A stretch of 64,000 nt of DNA, taken from positions 1 to 64,000 of IMG/VR virus record IMGVR_UViG_3300020185_004577; one strand, 5' to 3'. Position 1 is the stretch's first letter. Every line of letters begins with the position of its first letter. Below, in pieces: positions 14,730-57,994 of the stretch. Both the position numbers and the translations under genes were made by a program. The notes under the pieces are model-generated. The model ran no database searches, was not told where the DNA came from, and saw only the letters and a program-made list of their open reading frames with translations. This stretch comes from a virus.

Positions 14730-15482
14730 TTATTTCTTAGACCTAGTGGTTCTAGCCTTTTTGGGAGGCTCCAAACCAACAACGTGGTCTATAACTCCGT
14801 ATTCTAGAGCTTCTACTGCTGTCATCCAATAATCTCTATCACAATCTGCATGTATAGTTTCGAACTTTTGACCAGTATGGTGAGCTATAATTTCATACAA
14901 CTCTTTTTTGAGTAAATTAATCTGTGTAGCAGTTATTTCAATATCTGAAGCTTGTGATTGACCAATGCCACCCAATGGCTGATGTTGCATTGAGCGAGAA
15001 TGTTTTAAAGCATATCTTTTACCCTTCGCCCCCGCTGTTAACAAAACAAATGCCATAGAAGCGCAAAGACCCATGTTATAAGTTCCTACATTGGGTGCTA
15101 CCGCTTGCATAGTGTCATATATACCCAATCCAGCATATACTGAGCCTCCAGGGCTATTTATGTACATTTTTACATCTTTTTTCTTATCTACAGACTCTAA
15201 ATATAATAATTGAGCATTTATTACATTTGCAACTTGGTCAGTAACTGGCATGCCCATATATATAATTCTGTCCATCATTAATCTCGAAAAAACATCCATA
15301 GCAACAGCATTCATCTGTCTTTCTTCAATAATATTTGGAGTCATGCCTACAGGTGAAGTTTCTAACATAGAAACTGGGTTCATTACACTTCTCATTTGAA
15401 TATTTTCGTAATCATGAAATGTCATACTTGAAACACCGTGGTCTCTTGCGAATAATTTAAAATCCTTCTTTATATTTTTCAT
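14730..15482 (-). CDS. clpP: ATP-dependent Clp protease proteolytic subunit
   Basis: DVFSRLMMDRII, YINSPGGS, CASM (catalytic Ser), HQPLGG, DRDYW; start reassigned to MKNIKKDF (15482). Confidence 0.96.
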   Translation of the reverse strand: MKNIKKDFKLFARDHGVSSMTFHDYENIQMRSVMNPVSMLETSPVGMTPNIIEERQMNAVAMDVFSRLMMDRIIYMGMPVTDQVANVINAQLLYLESVDKKKDVKMYINSPGGSVYAGLGIYDTMQAVAPNVGTYNMGLCASMAFVLLTAGAKGKRYALKHSRSMQHQPLGGIGQSQASDIEITATQINLLKKELYEIIAHHTGQKFETIHADCDRDYWMTAVEALEYGVIDHVVGLEPPKKARTTRSKK

Positions 15483-15483
15483 A

Positions 15484-17568
15484 TTATTTTTTATTTGTTT
15501 TTTTAGAAACTCTTTTTGCAACTTTTTTAACAACAACATTATCTTCTTTAGCGCTATAGTCAACAGATAATTTATCTCCTAATTTTATTTCACCTCTCAA
15601 CACGGCTTGTGAAGCTGGGTTTTGTACGTACTTTGTAACTGCCCTTATTACAGGTCTTGCTCCAAATTCTTCACTGTAACTTTCCTTTAATAAGAAATCT
15701 TTCATTTTCTTTGTAATAGAAAGTTCATACTCTCCGTTTTCAAACATTCTTTTTGCCAAAGAACTAACATGTATATCTACTATTTTAGAAATATCATCTT
15801 CTTTTAAAGTGTTAAAGACAACTTTTTCATCAATTCTATTAATAAACTCTGGTCTGAACACTTTTTTGAGCGACTTTGCAATAACATCATTAACATTCAT
15901 ATCGTCAGTTGTGCCAGAATCAAAACCTACAGGAGTGACATCCAACTCTTTAACTCCAATATTAGAAGTCATTATTATAATGGTATTTTTAAAGTTAATC
16001 TCTCTACCTAGACTATCAGTCAACATCCCTTCATCTAATATTTGCAAAAGAACATTACTAACATCTCTATGCGCTTTTTCTATTTCGTCAAAAAGAATAA
16101 CACTATAAGGATTGTTTTTAACAGCATCTGCTAATTGTCCACCCTCATCGTGACCTACATACCCAGGAGGTGAACCTATCATTCTAGACACTGAATGAGG
16201 CTCCATGTACTCTGACATATCAAGTCTTATGAGAGACTCTTCATTTCCAAACATATATTCAGCTAAAGCTTTAGTTAGTTCAGTTTTACCAACTCCAGTC
16301 CTTCCTAAAAACAAAAATGAAGCAATTGGTCTATTTGGATTATGAAAACCTGCTGCAGACCTTTGTACAGCTTCTGAAACCTTTTGAACAGCTTCATCTT
16401 GACCAATAACTCTAGACTTTATTTCTTCAGGCATTTTAATTAACCTCAAACCTTCATCATCAGTTAGTTTCTTAACAGGAATACCAGTCATTCTAGCAAC
16501 AACTCTAGCTATTTCATCAAGTAAAACATCAACTTTGTTTTCTTTACTTTCTTTATCCCAATTAAATTTATCTAACTCTAATTGTTTTTCCATTTTTCTA
16601 ATAGCATCTCTTGAATCTGCTGCCATTTCAAATTCTTGCTTTTTTATATGACTAGCCTTTAATTCCACTTGAGACTCTATATCTTTTTCTAATTGAAGAA
16701 TTTCTTCAGGAACATTTATATTATCTATGTGAACTCTAGAACCAACTTCATCCATTATATCTATTGCCTTATCTGGGAATTGTCTCTCTGTAATATATCT
16801 TTCAGCATATGTAATACAAGCATCTATAGCCTCCTCATTAAAAGATACATTATGAAAATTTTCATAGTGCTGTTTGATATTCATTAATATTTCTTTAGTC
16901 TCTTCAGTTGTGGGTGGTACAACTTTAACTTTTTGAAATCTTCTTTCTAAAGCTCCATCTTTTTCTATAGTTTTTTTATACTCATCTATAGTAGTAGCAC
17001 CAATACATTGAATGGCACCTCTAGAAAGAGCTGGTTTAATCATGTTTGCAACATCTAAAGAGCCCTGAGCATTACCAGTTCCTATTATAGTGTGTATTTC
17101 GTCAATAAAAACAATTACATCCTGATTTTCTTCAAGCTCTTCTATAATAGCCTTCATACGTTCCTCAAACTGGCCTCTGTATTTTGTGCCAGCAACAATA
17201 GATGACATCTCTAGTTCAACTATTCTTTTGTCGTGTAAAATTCTACTTACTTCTTTATTTACAATTTTCATTGCTATACCTTCAGCGATTGCAGTTTTAC
17301 CAACCCCTGGGTCTCCTATTAAAACAGGATTATTCTTTTTTCTTCTACTCAATATTTGTATTAGCCTATCAATTTCTTCTTCCCTTCCTATTACAGGGTC
17401 TAGCTGATTGTTCATTGCTAATAACGTTATATCTTTACCAAAAGAATCTAACGCTGGTGTCTTTGATTCTTTTCCATCTTTTCTCTTAATTCTTTTACCA
17501 TCATTTGGCTCTTTTCTACCACCGAATGATTCAAACTCACTTTCATCTGAAGACATATTGATATTCAT
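15484..17568 (-). CDS. clpC: ClpC-type AAA+ unfoldase lacking the N-terminal Clp-repeat domain
   Basis: Two Walker A motifs (GDPGVGKT, GRTGVGKT), UVR-type middle domain QEFEMAADSRD, VGF ClpP-docking loop. Confidence 0.93.
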   Translation of the reverse strand: MNINMSSDESEFESFGGRKEPNDGKRIKRKDGKESKTPALDSFGKDITLLAMNNQLDPVIGREEEIDRLIQILSRRKKNNPVLIGDPGVGKTAIAEGIAMKIVNKEVSRILHDKRIVELEMSSIVAGTKYRGQFEERMKAIIEELEENQDVIVFIDEIHTIIGTGNAQGSLDVANMIKPALSRGAIQCIGATTIDEYKKTIEKDGALERRFQKVKVVPPTTEETKEILMNIKQHYENFHNVSFNEEAIDACITYAERYITERQFPDKAIDIMDEVGSRVHIDNINVPEEILQLEKDIESQVELKASHIKKQEFEMAADSRDAIRKMEKQLELDKFNWDKESKENKVDVLLDEIARVVARMTGIPVKKLTDDEGLRLIKMPEEIKSRVIGQDEAVQKVSEAVQRSAAGFHNPNRPIASFLFLGRTGVGKTELTKALAEYMFGNEESLIRLDMSEYMEPHSVSRMIGSPPGYVGHDEGGQLADAVKNNPYSVILFDEIEKAHRDVSNVLLQILDEGMLTDSLGREINFKNTIIIMTSNIGVKELDVTPVGFDSGTTDDMNVNDVIAKSLKKVFRPEFINRIDEKVVFNTLKEDDISKIVDIHVSSLAKRMFENGEYELSITKKMKDFLLKESYSEEFGARPVIRAVTKYVQNPASQAVLRGEIKLGDKLSVDYSAKEDNVVVKKVAKRVSKKTNKK

Positions 17569-18049: not shown

Positions 18050-18484
18050 ATGAAAAAAAAAATTGGTGCTGGAATATTTGCTATTGATAAAAATAGTGGA
18101 AAAATATTGTTATGCAAAAGAGGTTTAGACACTTCGTTTTCTGAGATGTGGGCTGTATTTGGGGGAACTTTTGAAGAGACTGATGTAACACCAAAAAAAA
18201 CAGCCAAAAGAGAATTTTATGAAGAAACGGGGTCTGATGTAAATTATCAAATATCTAAAGAGCCGTTTTTTATAAACTCCAATAGGCTAATAGATTTTTA
18301 CACATATTTAGGCATATTTAATGGCCAACCAGAAATAAGAATAAACGAAGAAAGCCTTAGTTATGGTTGGTTTGATATAGACAATTTACCAAAAAATATA
18401 ATACCTGGGTTAAATGATATGCTTAACGAAAAAACTCCTGAAATTAAAGAAATAATAAAAAAATTATATAACTCTAACTATTAA
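18050..18484 (+). CDS. NUDIX hydrolase
   Basis: Nudix box GGTFEETDVTPKKTAKREFYEETG. Confidence 0.93.
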   Translation: MKKKIGAGIFAIDKNSGKILLCKRGLDTSFSEMWAVFGGTFEETDVTPKKTAKREFYEETGSDVNYQISKEPFFINSNRLIDFYTYLGIFNGQPEIRINEESLSYGWFDIDNLPKNIIPGLNDMLNEKTPEIKEIIKKLYNSNY

Positions 18485-19505
18485 AAGCATTTTTAAGTAT
18501 GTGCTTAATTACAGATACGGTAAATCCATTCCCTACCATTCTATACCTTTCAGTTCTAGAAACATTTTCCACATTCGTATAACCATCTGGCAAACACTGC
18601 AATCTCTCACATTCAATTATTGTCAATTTTCTAAATCCTTTTTGATTAAACTCTAAAGCTTTTTCTCCTCTAGGGTCTAATTGTAAACTCTTCTTTTCTC
18701 CAGAGAATTTATACATCTTCTCCTTCCCAGTTATAAATTTATTCATAAAAACTTCTTCGCCTTCTTTTAGGGCAGATTTTTCTACTTTTTTACCCTTAAA
18801 GACTATTTGTCTTTTACTTTTCTTTACGTACATATCAAAGTTTGAGCCTTTGAAGTAGTTTGCATCTATACAATACGCCTTTTCTTTGTTTGTATACCCA
18901 TTCTCTAAAATATCTTTTAGCTTTTTATTTTCATCTTTTGGTTGGTCAACTTTTATATTTGTCCAATAAAGTCTATTTCTTTTTTGAGCAGATAATTTTT
19001 CGGAGTTTATATTTACATAAGGAGTCCCTATAGCTCTAGATATAGCAGTCTTACTATCCAAACTCATGCTTGCCACATTTTCTAAAAGAAAATACTTTGG
19101 ATTCAAATTTTCTTTCGCTTCTATATAATTCCAAAATAATCCACTCCTTTCTCCGTCAAGACCTTTTCTATTACTTTTTGCTATACTTAAATCTTGACAT
19201 GGTGAACCACCTATTAGCAAATCTACCTTTCCATTACAAATCTCTAGTATTTTTTTGTAATCTAAAGATTTAACGTCTCCCATTTGAATTATTTCAGGAT
19301 GATTACTCTTAGACACTTTCATTGCATTAACATCAACCTCTGAGGATATATATAAATTCACTTTTACACCCATTTCTTTTAATGCAACCATAGCACAAGA
19401 AGCTCCATCAAATAAACTAACTACATTGATTCCACTATCTTCTTTTGATTTAAAACCAATTATTGATATTAATATTTTAAATATTTTATTAAGCTTACTC
19501 ATCAT
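18474..19505 (-). CDS. C5 cytosine DNA methyltransferase
   Basis: SLFDG motif I, GGSPCQD catalytic motif, ENV, QKRNR, GNG. Confidence 0.93.
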   Translation of the reverse strand: MMSKLNKIFKILISIIGFKSKEDSGINVVSLFDGASCAMVALKEMGVKVNLYISSEVDVNAMKVSKSNHPEIIQMGDVKSLDYKKILEICNGKVDLLIGGSPCQDLSIAKSNRKGLDGERSGLFWNYIEAKENLNPKYFLLENVASMSLDSKTAISRAIGTPYVNINSEKLSAQKRNRLYWTNIKVDQPKDENKKLKDILENGYTNKEKAYCIDANYFKGSNFDMYVKKSKRQIVFKGKKVEKSALKEGEEVFMNKFITGKEKMYKFSGEKKSLQLDPRGEKALEFNQKGFRKLTIIECERLQCLPDGYTNVENVSRTERYRMVGNGFTVSVIKHILKNAFNS

Positions 19506-19513
19506 TTATTTAT

Positions 19514-20578
19514 TTATTTATTTAAATTTATTTTTTTTTTTGTTTTGTAAAACTGTTTTTGCTCTAACAAATGTAAACATTCTTCTGGGACTATGTACTT
19601 CAGTTTGTCAATCCCATTTTCCTCTCTTAAAATTTGCCTTACCTTAGAAGAGGATATATTTGTCTCTAGCAATCCTTCTATCTTTTTTATATTTTTGTTG
19701 ATAGACTCAAATCTAACAACTTTATTTATATCATTCATATGAGCACCACCTCTTTCATAGTAAAATATAGGAAAATTATCTTCTATGTATTGTGAAGACT
19801 TTAAATTACCTATATCATACAAGTAATCTGCGCCCATAATTAAAGAAAATTTGTAATCTTTATATTTTGCACTTATCTTTAGTAGAGATTCAGCAACAGA
19901 ATTATTTTCATCGTTTTTATAATCCAATTTTGCTAATTTAAAATAAGGATTATCAAGTATAGCATTTTTCAAAAGTAAAATTCTACTTTTTAAACTTAAC
20001 AACTCTTCACTCTTGTGATTCAAGTCATATCCTTCGTCAGAAAATAAAAACCAAACTTCATCAAAGTTATAACTATTGACAACTGTATTTGCAACAATTA
20101 AATGAGCATTATGTACTGGGTTAAATGAACCTATAAATAGACCTATATTAGATGTTTTTTTGCTATTTTTATTACTTAAGCCCTTTATCATTACTATGTC
20201 CCTTTCTAGTTGCTGCAATATTTTAGCCTTTTTTTGCTTTAAATCCCTTATGGAATAAGATGCTTTATTTGAAACTAATTTGCTTACTAGAAATTTAGAA
20301 TTTATATTGTTAAATTTCTCAATATACTTTTTGTTAGACTCATATAATTCATCATGCTTTTTAATTGAACTTATTATCGTAGCATGGTCTCTTCCTCCCA
20401 AAATGTTTCCAATATCACGCAAGCTAACTTTAAAGTTAGACTTTATTATAACTGCAAAAACTCTTCTAGCATCAGCATAATCTGGCTTTCTGCTTTTTGA
20501 AATAACATCCTCTTTGGAAAGCCCAGTTTCTTTTGCAATTATGGAAAATAATAAATTTTTCTCTTTATTTGTAAGCAT
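19514..20578 (-). CDS. Fusion: DnaA domain IV-like HTH plus NadD/NMNAT-like nucleotidyltransferase
   Basis: N-terminal SKSRK..ARR..SLRDIGNILGGRDHATII; C-terminal GLFIGSFNPVHNAH, LIMGAD, ISSSKVR. Confidence 0.85.
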   Translation of the reverse strand: MLTNKEKNLLFSIIAKETGLSKEDVISKSRKPDYADARRVFAVIIKSNFKVSLRDIGNILGGRDHATIISSIKKHDELYESNKKYIEKFNNINSKFLVSKLVSNKASYSIRDLKQKKAKILQQLERDIVMIKGLSNKNSKKTSNIGLFIGSFNPVHNAHLIVANTVVNSYNFDEVWFLFSDEGYDLNHKSEELLSLKSRILLLKNAILDNPYFKLAKLDYKNDENNSVAESLLKISAKYKDYKFSLIMGADYLYDIGNLKSSQYIEDNFPIFYYERGGAHMNDINKVVRFESINKNIKKIEGLLETNISSSKVRQILREENGIDKLKYIVPEECLHLLEQKQFYKTKKKINLNK

Positions 20579-20639
20579 TTATTTTTTGTTAATTGAGCTC
20601 CATACATAATGGTTTTCTCATTTTTTTATAATTAAACAA

Positions 20640-22151
20640 TTATAGGGAAACCACAAAAGTAAATGGTTTTTTAGAGTTTTGTTTATTAATTAACTCTCTA
20701 ATTTCACCAATTGTTGTTGTTTTGTAAAATTTACCATCTTTGTAGATAGTGCCCAAAAGACCACACCCCTCTTCTTCAACAGTACACTGGTCTTTTAGTT
20801 TAATTTTACCTTCAGAATCTTGATAAATATGCAAATAACCTTTAGCGGATTTTTTTACACCATCATCAGTTATTGGGTCTTTAAAAATATCTCTAGACTC
20901 GCCATTAACAACAACGTGAGTGGCTTTAACTGCGCCACCCTGGCTATCTCTAGTTGCATAGCCCATTGAATATGAGCCAATGCCTAACACAACATTTGTA
21001 GACGCAAAACCTTTAGCTTCTAGTCTCACACAAATATCTTCAGCCCTTTCTAAAGTTATACTGTCTCCGTATATTGCTCCAATATGAGAGTCTAAAACCT
21101 TATAACCTTGAGAGTTGATAGTTCCTCCAAAAACATCCCAAAGAAGCTCAATAACACCTTTTGAAACAGCTTCTTCAACAGAAGTTGTAGCATCGTCTGT
21201 ATAAAACAAATCAATACCACACAATATGTCAACAGGGTCTCCAGAATCAGGCCTAATAACTAACTTACCATCCCTATTCAAAATATCATCTTTAAGCTCG
21301 GTAATAAACTCGGTACAAACTTTCCACAAATCAAAAGAATCAGAAACAACTGAAAGTATACCAGTTGGATATTGCTTCATCAACCTTCTAAATGCGTTAA
21401 TTTCATCTTCTTGTCCATATGCAGTCATTACTGCATGCTCAGAAGCTGGCACACTGAAGCCTATGTCTTTTGAATTGTAATAATGTTCTGCCGCTTGCAA
21501 GCAAGGTATGGTGTCTGTTCCACAAAAAGATGTTAAAAAACCTAAACCAGAACTAATTGCAGACTCTGGGTGCTGCATTCCTCTAAATGAAAAATCATGA
21601 CCTTGAAAATCAACAAAAGCTAAATTTTCAGCATCAGTTTTCATAGCGTGTTTTACCAATATTTGCTTATAAGCATAAGCCAAGGATGCTGAATGCAATG
21701 GTTTCCACAATAAAGAAGAAATCATAGTTTCTAAAAAGTTAGGTAACCAAAAAAAGTCTTTATGCGTGTTTTTTACAGTGAAAAATGGGACTTTTTCATC
21801 TATCACAGTTCCTTCTGGCAAAGACTTTACTTGTATAGGTAAATATCCCAAATCATGTAATGATTCAAAGTGAGAAACATCATAATCTGAGCCCAAGTAA
21901 GAAGAGAGAAAATCCTTAGCCTCTCCTACAACCTCACTTTTGGGTCTATTGAAGAAATTTTCATTATATAATTCTTCTATTTTTTGTATAGTATATTGAA
22001 CACCAAAAACAACTACTTTTTTAGCCTGTTCAGGCATGTATTTTACACTTCTAGGAGTAAAGTTTGAATAGACTTCTGTGGTTCCCTCTGGATACATTCT
22101 ATGGTGACTAGTCTTGTAACCATCTGTCATTAATAGTGGATTATTTTTCAT
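20640..22151 (-). CDS. Nicotinamide phosphoribosyltransferase family (NadV/Nampt or Namat)
   Basis: TDGYKTSH, HDFSFRG, SVPASEHAVM, SVVSDSFD, VIRPDSGDP, IYGDSIT, KDPITDDGVKKSAKG. Confidence 0.95.
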   Translation of the reverse strand: MKNNPLLMTDGYKTSHHRMYPEGTTEVYSNFTPRSVKYMPEQAKKVVVFGVQYTIQKIEELYNENFFNRPKSEVVGEAKDFLSSYLGSDYDVSHFESLHDLGYLPIQVKSLPEGTVIDEKVPFFTVKNTHKDFFWLPNFLETMISSLLWKPLHSASLAYAYKQILVKHAMKTDAENLAFVDFQGHDFSFRGMQHPESAISSGLGFLTSFCGTDTIPCLQAAEHYYNSKDIGFSVPASEHAVMTAYGQEDEINAFRRLMKQYPTGILSVVSDSFDLWKVCTEFITELKDDILNRDGKLVIRPDSGDPVDILCGIDLFYTDDATTSVEEAVSKGVIELLWDVFGGTINSQGYKVLDSHIGAIYGDSITLERAEDICVRLEAKGFASTNVVLGIGSYSMGYATRDSQGGAVKATHVVVNGESRDIFKDPITDDGVKKSAKGYLHIYQDSEGKIKLKDQCTVEEEGCGLLGTIYKDGKFYKTTTIGEIRELINKQNSKKPFTFVVSL

Positions 22152-22162
22152 TTTTATAGATT

Positions 22163-23077
22163 TTAATTATTATTATTTTTTATCTTAGGTAAATTGCCTT
22201 TTCCAATTATGAATATATCATATTGATTTAATTGATTATGCAATGGAAACTGATTAACACTATTTGTTGTATATATTTCATCTATGTGTTCAAAAATTGT
22301 ATCAAGCCCTTTAGAGAATATTCCATGCGTGATAACTAAAGCTATTTTTGAGTTTTTGCCATAATCTCTTCTGATAACTTTAGCTAATTCTATAAAAGTT
22401 CTACCTCCATCACATATATCGTCCACTATTACAAATGTTTTATTTTCTGCATTATCAACCTCGCCACTAATTGATGTGTGAGTGATGTTGCCTTTTAGGT
22501 CTCTATTTTTAGAGCCTATTATCATATTCTTAATGTCAAATTTTTGTTGTATTTTGAAAACCTTTTTAAGCGCTCCAGCATCAGGCGATACTAATACTAT
22601 TCCATCTTTAGCATTGTCAATATTTCTTAAAGCTTGATTAAATAAATATTGATTATCTCTAGATTCAAAGTTATTTATACAAGCCTCCAAAACATCTGAA
22701 TGTGGGTCTAAGACTGTAACTTTTTCAAAGTTTTGTGAATTAAGTATTGGTGCTATAACTGTTTTAATATAATTGATTCCACCCTCTTCAAACTTTCTAT
22801 CACTTCTACCACCAATACAATAAGGTATATATAATCTAACTTTTTTTACGCCAATTTCTTTTAAACACTGATTGGCACACACAATTAACTCTAAGTCCTT
22901 AAAACTGTTTAGTCTTGATTTAATTGTAATACCTTGGCTGTTGTTTTTTAGAGAATCAAAAGTAGAATATCCTTTCTCAACAATTTTAAGAGTTTGTTGT
23001 CCGTCTGGGAATTTTGAAATCTCATATCCACAAGAAAGTTGGTCATTTGAGTCTACTAAGTTTAATGTTTCAGCCAT
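22163..23077 (-). CDS. PRPP synthetase-like protein (Prs or Adps)
   Basis: FPDGQ, PY..GRSDR, DPHS, VSPDAGA, IVDDICDGGRTF, THGIFSKG. Confidence 0.93.
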   Translation of the reverse strand: MAETLNLVDSNDQLSCGYEISKFPDGQQTLKIVEKGYSTFDSLKNNSQGITIKSRLNSFKDLELIVCANQCLKEIGVKKVRLYIPYCIGGRSDRKFEEGGINYIKTVIAPILNSQNFEKVTVLDPHSDVLEACINNFESRDNQYLFNQALRNIDNAKDGIVLVSPDAGALKKVFKIQQKFDIKNMIIGSKNRDLKGNITHTSISGEVDNAENKTFVIVDDICDGGRTFIELAKVIRRDYGKNSKIALVITHGIFSKGLDTIFEHIDEIYTTNSVNQFPLHNQLNQYDIFIIGKGNLPKIKNNNN

Positions 23078-23157
23078 AATTGTTTTATATACTCAAATTT
23101 AAAGATAAATTAAAAGAATAGCAAATATGAATTCGCTATTTTCTTTGTTTTTATAGT

Positions 23158-23184
23158 AACGAAAAAATATTAAAAAAATTACAA
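23158..23184 (-). promoter_or_regulatory. ECF-like promoter motif TTGTAAT-N16-CGTT (also 28397-28423 and 57966-57992)
   Basis: Three intergenic copies with identical spacing. Confidence 0.55.
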
Positions 23185-27502: not shown

Positions 27503-28366
27503 TTATAGATATTTTATGAGCAAATCTTTTGTTGAAGTGTTTTCTAACAACTTTTTCTCAGCCTTTCTTGCAATTTGCCTAATCCTCTCATTGCTATACC
27601 CTAGTTTTCTAGCAATTTCCTCTTTAGAATGCGCTTGACAATCTATGCCATAAGTGTACCTAATGACTAAAGTTTCATTGTTCGTAAGTATTTCAAATGC
27701 TCTGTACATATCTTGTTTTAAAGAATCGTCTAACAATGAAGAGTCTGGCTTGCCCAAGCTATCATCTTCTATTAAATTCACTAAAGTTGAAGAGTTTTCA
27801 TCAGAACCTACTTTTGCATCTAAAGATGAATGAAAAGAACTAGCTTGCTGTAGAAGCTTACCAGATTCAGCGTCTATATCCATATATTCACAAACTTCGA
27901 ATTCTGTTGGCTCTCTTTCTAAAACTTGCTGCAAGTGCTGTACGGCTCTTATATATTTCCCAGCTTCTAAATTTTTATTAGAAGGAACTTTTATCATTCT
28001 CTTCTTTTCAGATATGGCTTGTATTATAGTTTGTCTAATCCACCAAACCGCAAAAGATATAAATTTAAAACCTCTAGTTCCATCGAATCTTTCGGCAGCC
28101 TTTATGAGTCCCAAATTACCTTCATTTATCAAATCGGCTAATGGCAATCCTGTATTTTGGTATTTTTTAGCAACACTAATTACGAATTTTAAATTTGATT
28201 GAACCAATTCTTTTAAAGCCTCTTCGTCACCTTCTTGAATCAATTTAGAAAGCTCAAATTCTCTTTCCGGGGTTATGGAATCAAATTTATTTACATCCGT
28301 AAAGTATTGTTCTATTGATTTTTCAGTTCTGTTTGTAAGGCTTTGTTGAATTTTTAATTGTCTCAT
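27503..28366 (-). CDS. RNA polymerase sigma70 factor, Bacteroidota RpoD/SigA-like (paralog 1)
   Basis: MRQLKI start, NLKFVISVAKKY, FISFAVWWIRQ, YSNERIRQI. Confidence 0.95.
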   Translation of the reverse strand: MRQLKIQQSLTNRTEKSIEQYFTDVNKFDSITPEREFELSKLIQEGDEEALKELVQSNLKFVISVAKKYQNTGLPLADLINEGNLGLIKAAERFDGTRGFKFISFAVWWIRQTIIQAISEKKRMIKVPSNKNLEAGKYIRAVQHLQQVLEREPTEFEVCEYMDIDAESGKLLQQASSFHSSLDAKVGSDENSSTLVNLIEDDSLGKPDSSLLDDSLKQDMYRAFEILTNNETLVIRYTYGIDCQAHSKEEIARKLGYSNERIRQIARKAEKKLLENTSTKDLLIKYL

Positions 28367-28423
28367 TTTCGTTTTTTTTTAAAGATTTATAACTTAAACG
28401 TAAAATGATAAAAAAAATTACAA

Positions 28424-57938: not shown

Positions 57939-57994
57939 AATTATAATTTTTATCTTTATTATATAAACGAATTAATATGAAAAATATTACAATA

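Follow-up and report, generated by a model that had tools for sequence, protein, structure and literature searches.

The 64,000 nucleotides analysed here (positions 1 to 64,000 of the IMG/VR virus record IMGVR_UViG_3300020185_004577, hereafter called the window) contain a gene at positions 19514 to 20578 whose product joins a module resembling DnaA domain IV to a domain resembling the adenylyltransferase NadD. The virus record comprises 83 kb with about 31% G+C, was rated 26% complete by CheckV, and carries genes for RNR, a DnaB-like helicase, a polymerase, a Clp protease and ATPase, and sigma factors; these features point to a large, probably very large, uncultured marine phage as its source. 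The fusion gene and its parts are listed below (aa, amino acid residues; pLDDT, predicted local distance difference test).

19514..20578, minus strand: whole fusion gene, 354 aa, with a DnaA domain IV-like module, a long helix and a NadD-like domain (open reading frame, Pfam, NCBIfam)
20285..20578, minus strand: DnaA domain IV-like helix-turn-helix module, aa 1-98, with the signature GGRDHATI (PF08299, 1J1V alignment, pLDDT 85-94)
20153..20284, minus strand: linker, aa 99-142, a single predicted helix (aa 100-137) and then a basic segment (AlphaFold2, pLDDT 52-63)
19514..20152, minus strand: NadD-like Rossmann adenylyltransferase domain, aa 143-354 plus the stop codon, the domain proper being aa 143-345 (TIGR00482, motifs, Foldseek)

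The reading frame is uninterrupted over its 354 codons. Regarding the N-terminal part, the Pfam model Bac_DnaA_C (PF08299) matched aa 12-74 with an E-value of 2.9e-16 and 59.7 bits, above the gathering threshold of 31.5, and the DnaA models of NCBIfam matched aa 5-96 with their C-terminal 85-90 positions only. Regarding the C-terminal part, CTP_transf_like (Pfam) matched aa 147-315 (E 2e-13), and aa 147-344 covered the full length of TIGR00482, the NadD equivalog model of NCBIfam (E 2e-28), with 99.7 bits, which is slightly below the equivalog cut-off of 112.45 and places the protein outside the NadD equivalog. Solved structures matched by sequence were the NadD 1KAM (E 1.6e-12) and the complex of E. 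coli DnaA domain IV with DNA, 1J1V (E 1.7e-6). The AlphaFold2 model of the fusion has a mean pLDDT of 72.7, with a confident N-terminal helical module (aa 1-98) and a Rossmann-type domain of moderate confidence only; the top Foldseek matches of the model were all NadD (E 9e-10 to about 1e-9, target-normalised TM 0.78-0.84), i.e., the domain has the Rossmann-type nucleotidyltransferase fold of NadD and NMNAT (nicotinamide mononucleotide (NMN) adenylyltransferase). These matches bear out an earlier interpretation made from the letters of the window (the sequence-only reading), which had proposed DnaA domain IV fused to a NadD-like domain; the motifs quoted there (GSFNPVHNAH, IMGAD, ISSSKVR and GGRDHATII) are each present in the protein, HNAH being the form taken by the HxGH motif. 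The ATP-side motifs of NadD, (H/T)xxH and ISSTxxR, are represented by HNAH (H156 and H159) and ISSSKVR (R314). The AAA+ domain III (PF00308) is missing from the fusion gene, the sole weak match in the record being the Clp ATPase, and with DnaA domains I-III missing the fusion protein is not a DnaA. In the PHROGs database, no family matched the fusion at E-values up to 0.01.

The search for the domain architecture Bac_DnaA_C plus CTP_transf_like that had been suggested as a check was productive: about 25 protein clusters with 38-99% identity carry both Pfam domains (word-indexed search). An exhaustive HMMER search over 1.84 billion 50%-identity representatives yielded only five clusters at E < 1e-30, four of which are full-length fusions, the remaining one (P0019) being devoid of the DnaA module. 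After the family the HMMER score drops from 191 to 97 bits, where stand-alone NadDs (about 190 aa) and stand-alone DnaA-C proteins (119-188 aa) begin, and no close split forms of the fusion were found among these representatives. Members of the family were found in assemblies from JGI, ENA, Logan, NCBI and Tara Oceans surface water, the longest contig having 460,667 bp, and the stretch itself is present in public marine, estuarine and marine-sediment runs of about eight studies (no RNA run among those listed). Contigs of other studies cover positions 19435-21512 and 19628-22132, across the domain junction, without a frame break, and the family alignment shows that linker and junction are conserved. 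An assembly or gene-calling artefact joining two genes, which had been named beforehand as the outcome that would overturn the fusion, is next to impossible, as nothing was found in its favour and it is contradicted by full-length homologues from multiple sources, by the junction-spanning contigs, by the absence of close split forms and by the conserved linker. The number of clusters with both domains, the kept gene order (see below) and the junction-spanning assemblies indicate that the fusion is under selection.

Among the matches listed, a pattern scan of IMG/VR yielded one further full-length locus (L002, 86% identity) and a pattern scan of metagenome contigs yielded one full-length locus (L082, 71%). 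The full fusion was not found in 185,579 prokaryote species genomes, where each match listed covered one half only; INPHARED phages yielded only single-domain matches, below 37% identity; and a literature search retrieved no paper describing DnaA domain IV fused to NadD. The distribution is narrow, comprising one uncultured marine phage lineage with about five 50%-identity clusters. Regarding P0019 (ENA contig, 1,870 bp), the 386-aa product has an aminotransferase class I/II N-terminus and a C-terminus 79-88% identical to fusion aa 155-349, and represents either a chimeric short contig or another fusion of the same NadD-like domain. A metagenome locus, L094:1142-2680, matches query residues 10-326 with only 21% identity over about 1.5 kb and could be a distant or differently spaced arrangement of DnaA-C and nucleotidyltransferase.

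The NadD-like half occurs in three grades within the family, as seen in the alignment with stand-alone NadDs. Clade i (P0020-25 and P0032) has the full canonical set HNGH, SPESPDK, PKPSYT, Trp and ISSTxIR. Clade i also comprises P0187, which is encoded on the 460,667-bp contig, and the contig of P0020 has 72,636 bp. In clade ii, to which the window protein belongs, HNAH and ISSSKVR are kept, whereas PSYT, SPxNPxK and Trp-Tyr have given way to other residues and the loop has been remodelled. Clade iii comprises P0033 (with P0202) and P0034; in P0033 and P0034 the histidines are gone (DNID, NNSH) and ISS is decayed. The histidines of HxxH, the ISSSKVR-type motif and R314 are invariant across clades i and ii. 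The TIGR00482 scores follow the same order, with 170-175 bits in stand-alone NadDs, 130-134 in clade i, 99.7-106.4 in the window's clade and 45-57 in clade iii, so that clade i passes the equivalog cut-off, whereas the window's clade and clade iii fall below it. In E. coli NadD, the H19A variant retains 0.62% activity, and His45 and Arg46 contact nicotinic acid mononucleotide (NaMN) (PMC1249556); H45 and W117 stack on the pyridine ring, Y118 forms a hydrogen bond to the ring, and the pockets for ATP and NaMN are spatially separate (PMC8035330). The pocket for the pyridine mononucleotide (H45/R46 loop, Y84, W117 and Y118 of E. coli) is not retained in the window's clade, and its motifs are present in clade i and in stand-alone NadDs. 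The rebuilt acceptor pocket (GADYLYD) is itself conserved within the window's clade. The NadD-like module of the window protein shows 63-96% identity within its own clade and 35-40% to the distant clade; because of the former values, the module of the window's clade is regarded as constrained and not decaying.

In a maximum-likelihood tree the fused NadD-like domains form one clade with respect to the sampled stand-alone NadDs (support 96/98). The stem leading to the window's clade is long (0.81), as are the tips of clade iii, and the branching order of the three groups is not fixed. Given the canonical outgroups, the simplest history would be that an active NadD was fused once and that its acceptor side was later remodelled or lost. 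The enzyme half probably started out as an NMN adenylyltransferase, an activity that clade i has probably retained; catalysis with NMN by the window's clade is doubtful, because the acceptor pocket is remodelled. Since the fusion is kept while catalytic residues go, selection would not be for catalysis alone.

The DnaA-like half is uniform by comparison. The Bac_DnaA_C score is steady at 51-60 bits in every clade; regarding identity to the distant clade, the DnaA-like module is the most conserved part (51-62%) and the linker the least conserved (20-45%). Residues of the fusion are converted to E. coli DnaA numbering by adding 369 (1J1V alignment). The equivalents of the DNA-contacting residues R399, R407, D433 and H434 are kept as R30, R38, D64 and H65, which are invariant or nearly so, and S27, R30, R38, G57 and H65 do not vary even when stand-alone relatives are included. 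In the paper on 1J1V, P423 and H439 are reportedly among the DnaA box contacts. R399, D433, H434 and T435 are given as the base-contacting residues of DnaA in that part of PMC13451751 which cites the E. coli work. Among these six residues, R399, D433 and H434 are kept, whereas the equivalent of T435 is Ala or Ser family-wide, that of H439 is Ser, Asn or Ala, and that of P423 is variable. DNA binding would be expected of such a module, yet, because of the three changed positions, presumably not to the canonical DnaA box.

Stand-alone phage proteins of the DnaA-C type are frequent, with at least 283 confirmed loci in IMG/VR phage contigs. Those related to the module of the fusion have 119-220 aa and 41-44% identity; the closest one listed (L003, 220 aa, 44%) is flanked by genes for a Toprim primase-like protein and a uracil-DNA glycosylase (L003:5863-8163), and no NadD-like gene, as would be expected of a split form, is found beside it.

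Prediction with two copies of the fusion gave a homodimer score of 0.55, the best of three controls scoring 0.00, with a partner pLDDT of 76. In the calibration of the tool, 20 of 30 proteins whose solved structures are pairs of one chain reached the mark, as did one of 23 solved as single chains. Between runs at least 50% of the contacts agree, and the confident contacts lie within the NadD-like domain (157-169, 210, 304-312 and 321-329); the insertion at aa 321-329, which is specific to the fusion family, is part of the predicted interface. The protein therefore probably dimerises, according to the model, through its NadD-derived domain, and regulators are usually dimeric with two helix-turn-helix heads. 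The 'short coiled coil' of the sequence-only reading corresponds to a single helix predicted at aa 100-137 with low confidence, and as no confident dimer contacts occur there, dimerisation via a coiled coil is not supported by the dimer model.

The fusion gene is the third of a series of co-directional genes. Its surroundings are listed below.

22163..23077, minus strand: upstream gene 1, Prs-like, probably Adps (the ADP-ribose pyrophosphokinase of NARP1; phrog_619, position)
20640..22151, minus strand: upstream gene 2, Namat-like nicotinamide ADP-ribose transferase (NAMPT according to family models; 9W5X/9W5W scores)
18474..19505, minus strand: downstream C5 cytosine DNA methyltransferase gene (PF00145, E 3.3e-39)
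23158..23184, minus strand: TTGTAAT-N16-CGTT, a promoter-like motif preceding the Adps-like gene (one of three exact copies)
18050-18484: NUDIX gene near the fusion

The gaps are 11 nt between the Prs-like and the Nampt-like gene and 61 nt between the latter and the fusion; the methyltransferase gene begins 8 nt past the stop codon of the fusion (8-nt overlap in L002), and no terminator-like site was found between these two genes. The order Adps-like, Namat-like, fusion, methyltransferase is identical in L002 and L082. Regarding the second gene, its product scores 490 bits to the crystal structures 9W5X/9W5W versus about 250 bits to classical Nampt, and 9W5X/9W5W represent the Namat of SpbetaL1, an enzyme of NARP1 (PMC12774641). 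The clamp-helix aromatics F392 and Y396, which define the selectivity of Namat for ADPR-PP (ADP-ribose pyrophosphate), align to Y and Y in the window's transferase. Regarding the first gene, its product reaches only about 50 bits to true Prs structures, matches phrog_619 with an E-value of 2.2e-65 and is 40-41% identical to the products of the prs genes of FelixO1-like coliphages; this phage 'prs' family (1,520 phage records) was shown to be the ADP-ribose pyrophosphokinase Adps (bioRxiv 10.1101/2024.02.11.579819). By these scores the upstream pair is of the NARP1 type (Adps-like plus Namat-like) and not a classical Prs/Nampt pair: the transferase belongs to the Namat clade and keeps the clamp aromatics, and the Prs-like gene, with predicted Adps activity, lies immediately upstream. 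As regards NARP2, its hallmark NMNAT-type domain occurs here, but by score the transferase falls with Namat. The sequence-only reading had called the fusion the third gene of an NAD operon, which agrees with its position, but the operon is NARP1-like and not a classical salvage pair. NARP1 converts ADP-ribose and nicotinamide to NAD in two steps without an NMNAT, Namat yields NMN from phosphoribosyl pyrophosphate (PRPP) in vitro, and no phage with both NARP1 and NARP2 was found (bioRxiv 10.1101/2024.02.11.579819). An NMNAT step would thus not be required in this unit, and with NARP1-type neighbours the enzyme half of the fusion is not obviously needed as an enzyme. The arrangement of a NARP1-type pair (20640-23077, minus strand) followed by an NMNAT-type domain, with a NUDIX gene nearby, is a combination that the same preprint found in no phage.

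Exact copies of TTGTAAT-N16-CGTT are located at 23158-23184, 28397-28423 and 57966-57992, all on the minus strand and each preceding a gene (the NAD operon, a sigma-70-like gene at 27503-28366, and another gene, respectively). With up to one mismatch, seven matches were found versus 1.65 expected in the window. The motif is a candidate for a phage promoter class, and its copy at 23158-23184 probably starts the transcription unit that includes the fusion; scans for sigma-70-type promoters and for terminators remained at chance level. Between the promoter-like motif and the start codon of the Adps-like gene lies a 6-bp inverted repeat, AATAGC-N11-GCTATT (about 23116-23138, minus strand), one arm of which differs in L002; it is a candidate operator or RNA hairpin. 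In one low-depth contig (depth 2; run X9 record 24), 18400-18487 is inverted and joined to the sequence from 19628 onwards, so that the methyltransferase gene is skipped; the contig represents either a strain variant devoid of this gene or an assembly quirk. Immediately downstream of the NAD/methyltransferase cluster, at 14730-17568 (minus strand), the phage encodes a ClpP-like protease, extended at its N-terminus by about 85 aa, and a 694-aa ClpB/ClpC-like ATPase with two AAA domains, the pair being conserved in both L002 and L082.

A dimeric, nucleotide-sensing DNA-binding regulator, built on the logic of NadR from different parts, is the preferred explanation of the fusion and is put forward tentatively, at somewhat less than an even chance. 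In this regulator a helix-turn-helix of the DnaA domain IV type would be carried on a long helix ahead of the NadD-derived nucleotide-binding domain, whose ligand would be an adenine nucleotide such as ATP, NAD or a compound related to them; the bound nucleotide would set how the two DnaA-like heads grip a phage DNA site other than the canonical box, and the expression of the NARP1 unit (Adps-Namat-fusion-methyltransferase), or another phage DNA transaction, would then track the NAD/ATP state of the cell. This explanation is favoured because the DNA-binding half and the fusion are kept while catalytic residues are lost, and because the adjacent NARP1 pathway needs no NMNAT. The reported cost of constitutive NAD synthesis of the NARP2 type (bioRxiv 10.1101/2024.02.11.579819) would provide a rationale for control. 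What the sequences show directly is the two-module architecture, its conservation and restricted occurrence, the NARP1 surroundings and the stepwise loss of enzyme motifs; the binding of DNA, the sensing of a ligand, the part played in regulation and the target are inferred. An NAD-, NMN- or ATP-sensing DNA-binding protein had also been suggested in the sequence-only reading; the constant DnaA-like and the graded NadD-like module are consistent with it, but the targets named there have no computed support.

Several observations weigh against such a regulator. No DNA target of the fusion was found by computation. Matches to the canonical DnaA box TTATCCACA with up to one mismatch number 22 versus 21.3 expected in the window, and those with up to two mismatches number 380 versus 357±16 in the 83-kb record, where they are also unclustered (the largest 300-bp cluster contains six, the same as in shuffles). 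Two such boxes flanking the operon promoter (23024 and 23308) are missing at the matching positions of the 86%-identical L002. Canonical boxes, which had been proposed as the target, are accordingly not supported as such. An operator search by local repeats near the operon gave nothing convincing, the promoter region of L002 is, with 94% identity, too close for footprinting, and L082 does not contain the region. The closest stand-alone relative of the DnaA-like module sits in a replication module and not beside metabolic genes, which fits a role in replication equally well. The homodimer score may partly echo solved structures of NadD, since crystal dimers of bacterial NadD exist. Lastly, the stand-alone NadD P0055, with 175 bits, also reads HNAH, so that HNAH alone is no sign of inactivity, and with its conserved half and invariant motifs the window's clade could perhaps be a plain active enzyme with a variant pocket.

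The last point leads to the next explanation, which is unlikely but deserves serious consideration, namely that the fusion is not a regulator but an active NMN/NaMN adenylyltransferase tethered to DNA, acting as a third enzymatic step that backs up NARP1. NMN from the PRPP side reaction of Namat or from host enzymes would be turned into NAD, and the DnaA-like head would merely localise the enzyme on phage or host DNA, e.g., near NAD-consuming DNA enzymes. The invariance of the HxxH histidines, ISSSKVR and R314 in clades i and ii, the passing of the equivalog cut-off by clade i, the HNAH of P0055 and the identity of the domain within the window's clade are in line with this explanation, and a substrate could exist in view of the NMN formed by Namat in vitro. 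Human NMNAT1 has Met at the Gly position of the HxGH motif. Nevertheless, the residues around the pyridine ring (W117, Y118 and the Y84/T85 region) are lost in the window's clade, which scores below the equivalog cut-off; clade iii retains the fusion without the catalytic histidines; NARP1 needs no NMNAT; and no NAD-dependent ligase was found in the 83-kb fragment. The last observation is uninformative in itself, as the fragment represents only about 26% of the genome; it yielded no ATP-dependent ligase domain either.

Two further explanations, each improbable, assign the DnaA-like heads to origins of replication. According to one of them, the heads would occupy boxes in the host oriC or in DnaA-regulated promoters and thereby shut down host initiation, the NadD-like domain serving as a dimerisation scaffold that is possibly nucleotide-gated. 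This could draw on a clear DnaA domain IV with equivalents of R399, D433 and H434, on the absence of DnaA domains I-III, which would permit box binding without initiation, and on the predicted dimer, but the family-wide differences at T435, H439 and P423 point to a specificity other than that of the host initiator, and the conserved position behind NARP1 genes and the partner with a NadD fold would be left unexplained. According to the other, the protein would bind a phage origin, with the nucleotide-binding domain coupling origin activity to the level of NAD or ATP. The location of L003, the abundance of stand-alone DnaA-C loci in phage contigs, and the genes for a DnaB-like helicase, a polymerase and RNR in the window are compatible with this; against it, the gene belongs to the NARP1/methyltransferase unit, with the helicase and polymerase genes about 18 kb away, and the 83-kb record, from which about three quarters of the genome are missing, showed no cluster of box-like repeats.

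Because the ATP site is kept and the acceptor pocket is rebuilt yet conserved in the window's clade, the protein might also be a DNA-anchored adenylyltransferase with a new acceptor, which is considered a long shot; the NAD arms race would then gain a new enzymatic step, and the protein would not be a sensor. Such an enzyme would, for example, re-form ADP-ribose from ribose 5-phosphate and feed Adps and Namat after host Nudix enzymes have destroyed ADP-ribose, or it would adenylylate a DNA-linked or defence-signalling substrate.

In comparison with known systems, the fusion resembles NadR in that one polypeptide combines a helix-turn-helix with a domain of NMNAT fold and is tied to NAD salvage genes. 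The NMNAT domain of NadR doubles as a sensor for NAD and ATP. In contrast to the fusion, which has DnaA domain IV, a NadD-type domain and no kinase, NadR is composed of an Xre-type helix-turn-helix, an archaeal-type NMNAT and a C-terminal ribosylnicotinamide kinase, and the window protein scores only 13.7 bits with the NadR NMNAT model TIGR01526 (cut-off 341), well outside that family. The two architectures appear to be convergent and not homologous; NadR had been cited in the sequence-only reading as a precedent with a different helix-turn-helix, and the analogy holds. With NadD the fusion shares the fold, the ATP-side motifs HxxH and ISSxxxR and the domain length, and clade i scores as NadD; the window protein differs by the loss of the Trp/Tyr and PSYT pocket, by the insertion at aa 321-329 and by the N-terminal DNA-binding module, which stand-alone NadDs lack. 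With DnaA domain IV the head shares the basic loop, the GGRDH signature and the equivalents of R399, R407, D433 and H434, whereas DnaA has domains I-III and the fusion has changed equivalents of T435, H439 and P423 as well as an enzyme fold. The stand-alone phage DnaA-C relative examined is found in a replication module, whereas the fusion is found behind NARP1.

BirA, the biotin protein ligase and bio repressor, is an adenylate-forming enzyme with an N-terminal helix-turn-helix, in which the ligand state governs dimerisation and operator binding; its fold and pathway are unrelated, and it serves as a working analogy only. As a regulator, the fusion would join the helix-turn-helix regulators derived from enzymes, such as NadR and BirA, with a combination of DnaA and NadD parts. 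Regarding phage NAD metabolism, the locus shares with NARP1 (Adps plus Namat) the Adps-like/Namat-like pair, and NARP1 reconstitutes NAD in phages against NAD-depleting defence. With NARP2 (the NadV Nampt and the NatV NMNAT-Nudix of KVP40) it shares an NMNAT-type domain, with a separate NUDIX gene nearby, but it differs in having a Namat-like transferase in place of a KVP40-type Nampt and a NadD-like in place of a NatV-like domain (NF003790, E 0.09). Neither NARP1 nor NARP2 as described includes a DNA-binding component, unlike the locus studied here, and a NadR-like enzyme of phages belongs to NARP3 (PMC13464706).

NARP1, NARP2 and NARP3 are a recent and active topic and have so far been described as enzymes only. 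The value of the finding is limited by its narrow distribution in one uncultured marine phage lineage and by a function deduced from sequence and predicted structure. If the preferred explanation is true, the metabolic anti-defence pathways of phages would have in the fusion their first candidate sensor or regulator, and the principle of NadR would have been invented independently from parts of DnaA and NadD. Through the fusion, the numerous phage proteins that consist of a stand-alone DnaA domain IV also come into view. The three grades of the family, from the canonical enzyme through the remodelled pocket to the loss of the catalytic histidines, provide a natural series for the question of how an enzyme may become a sensor.

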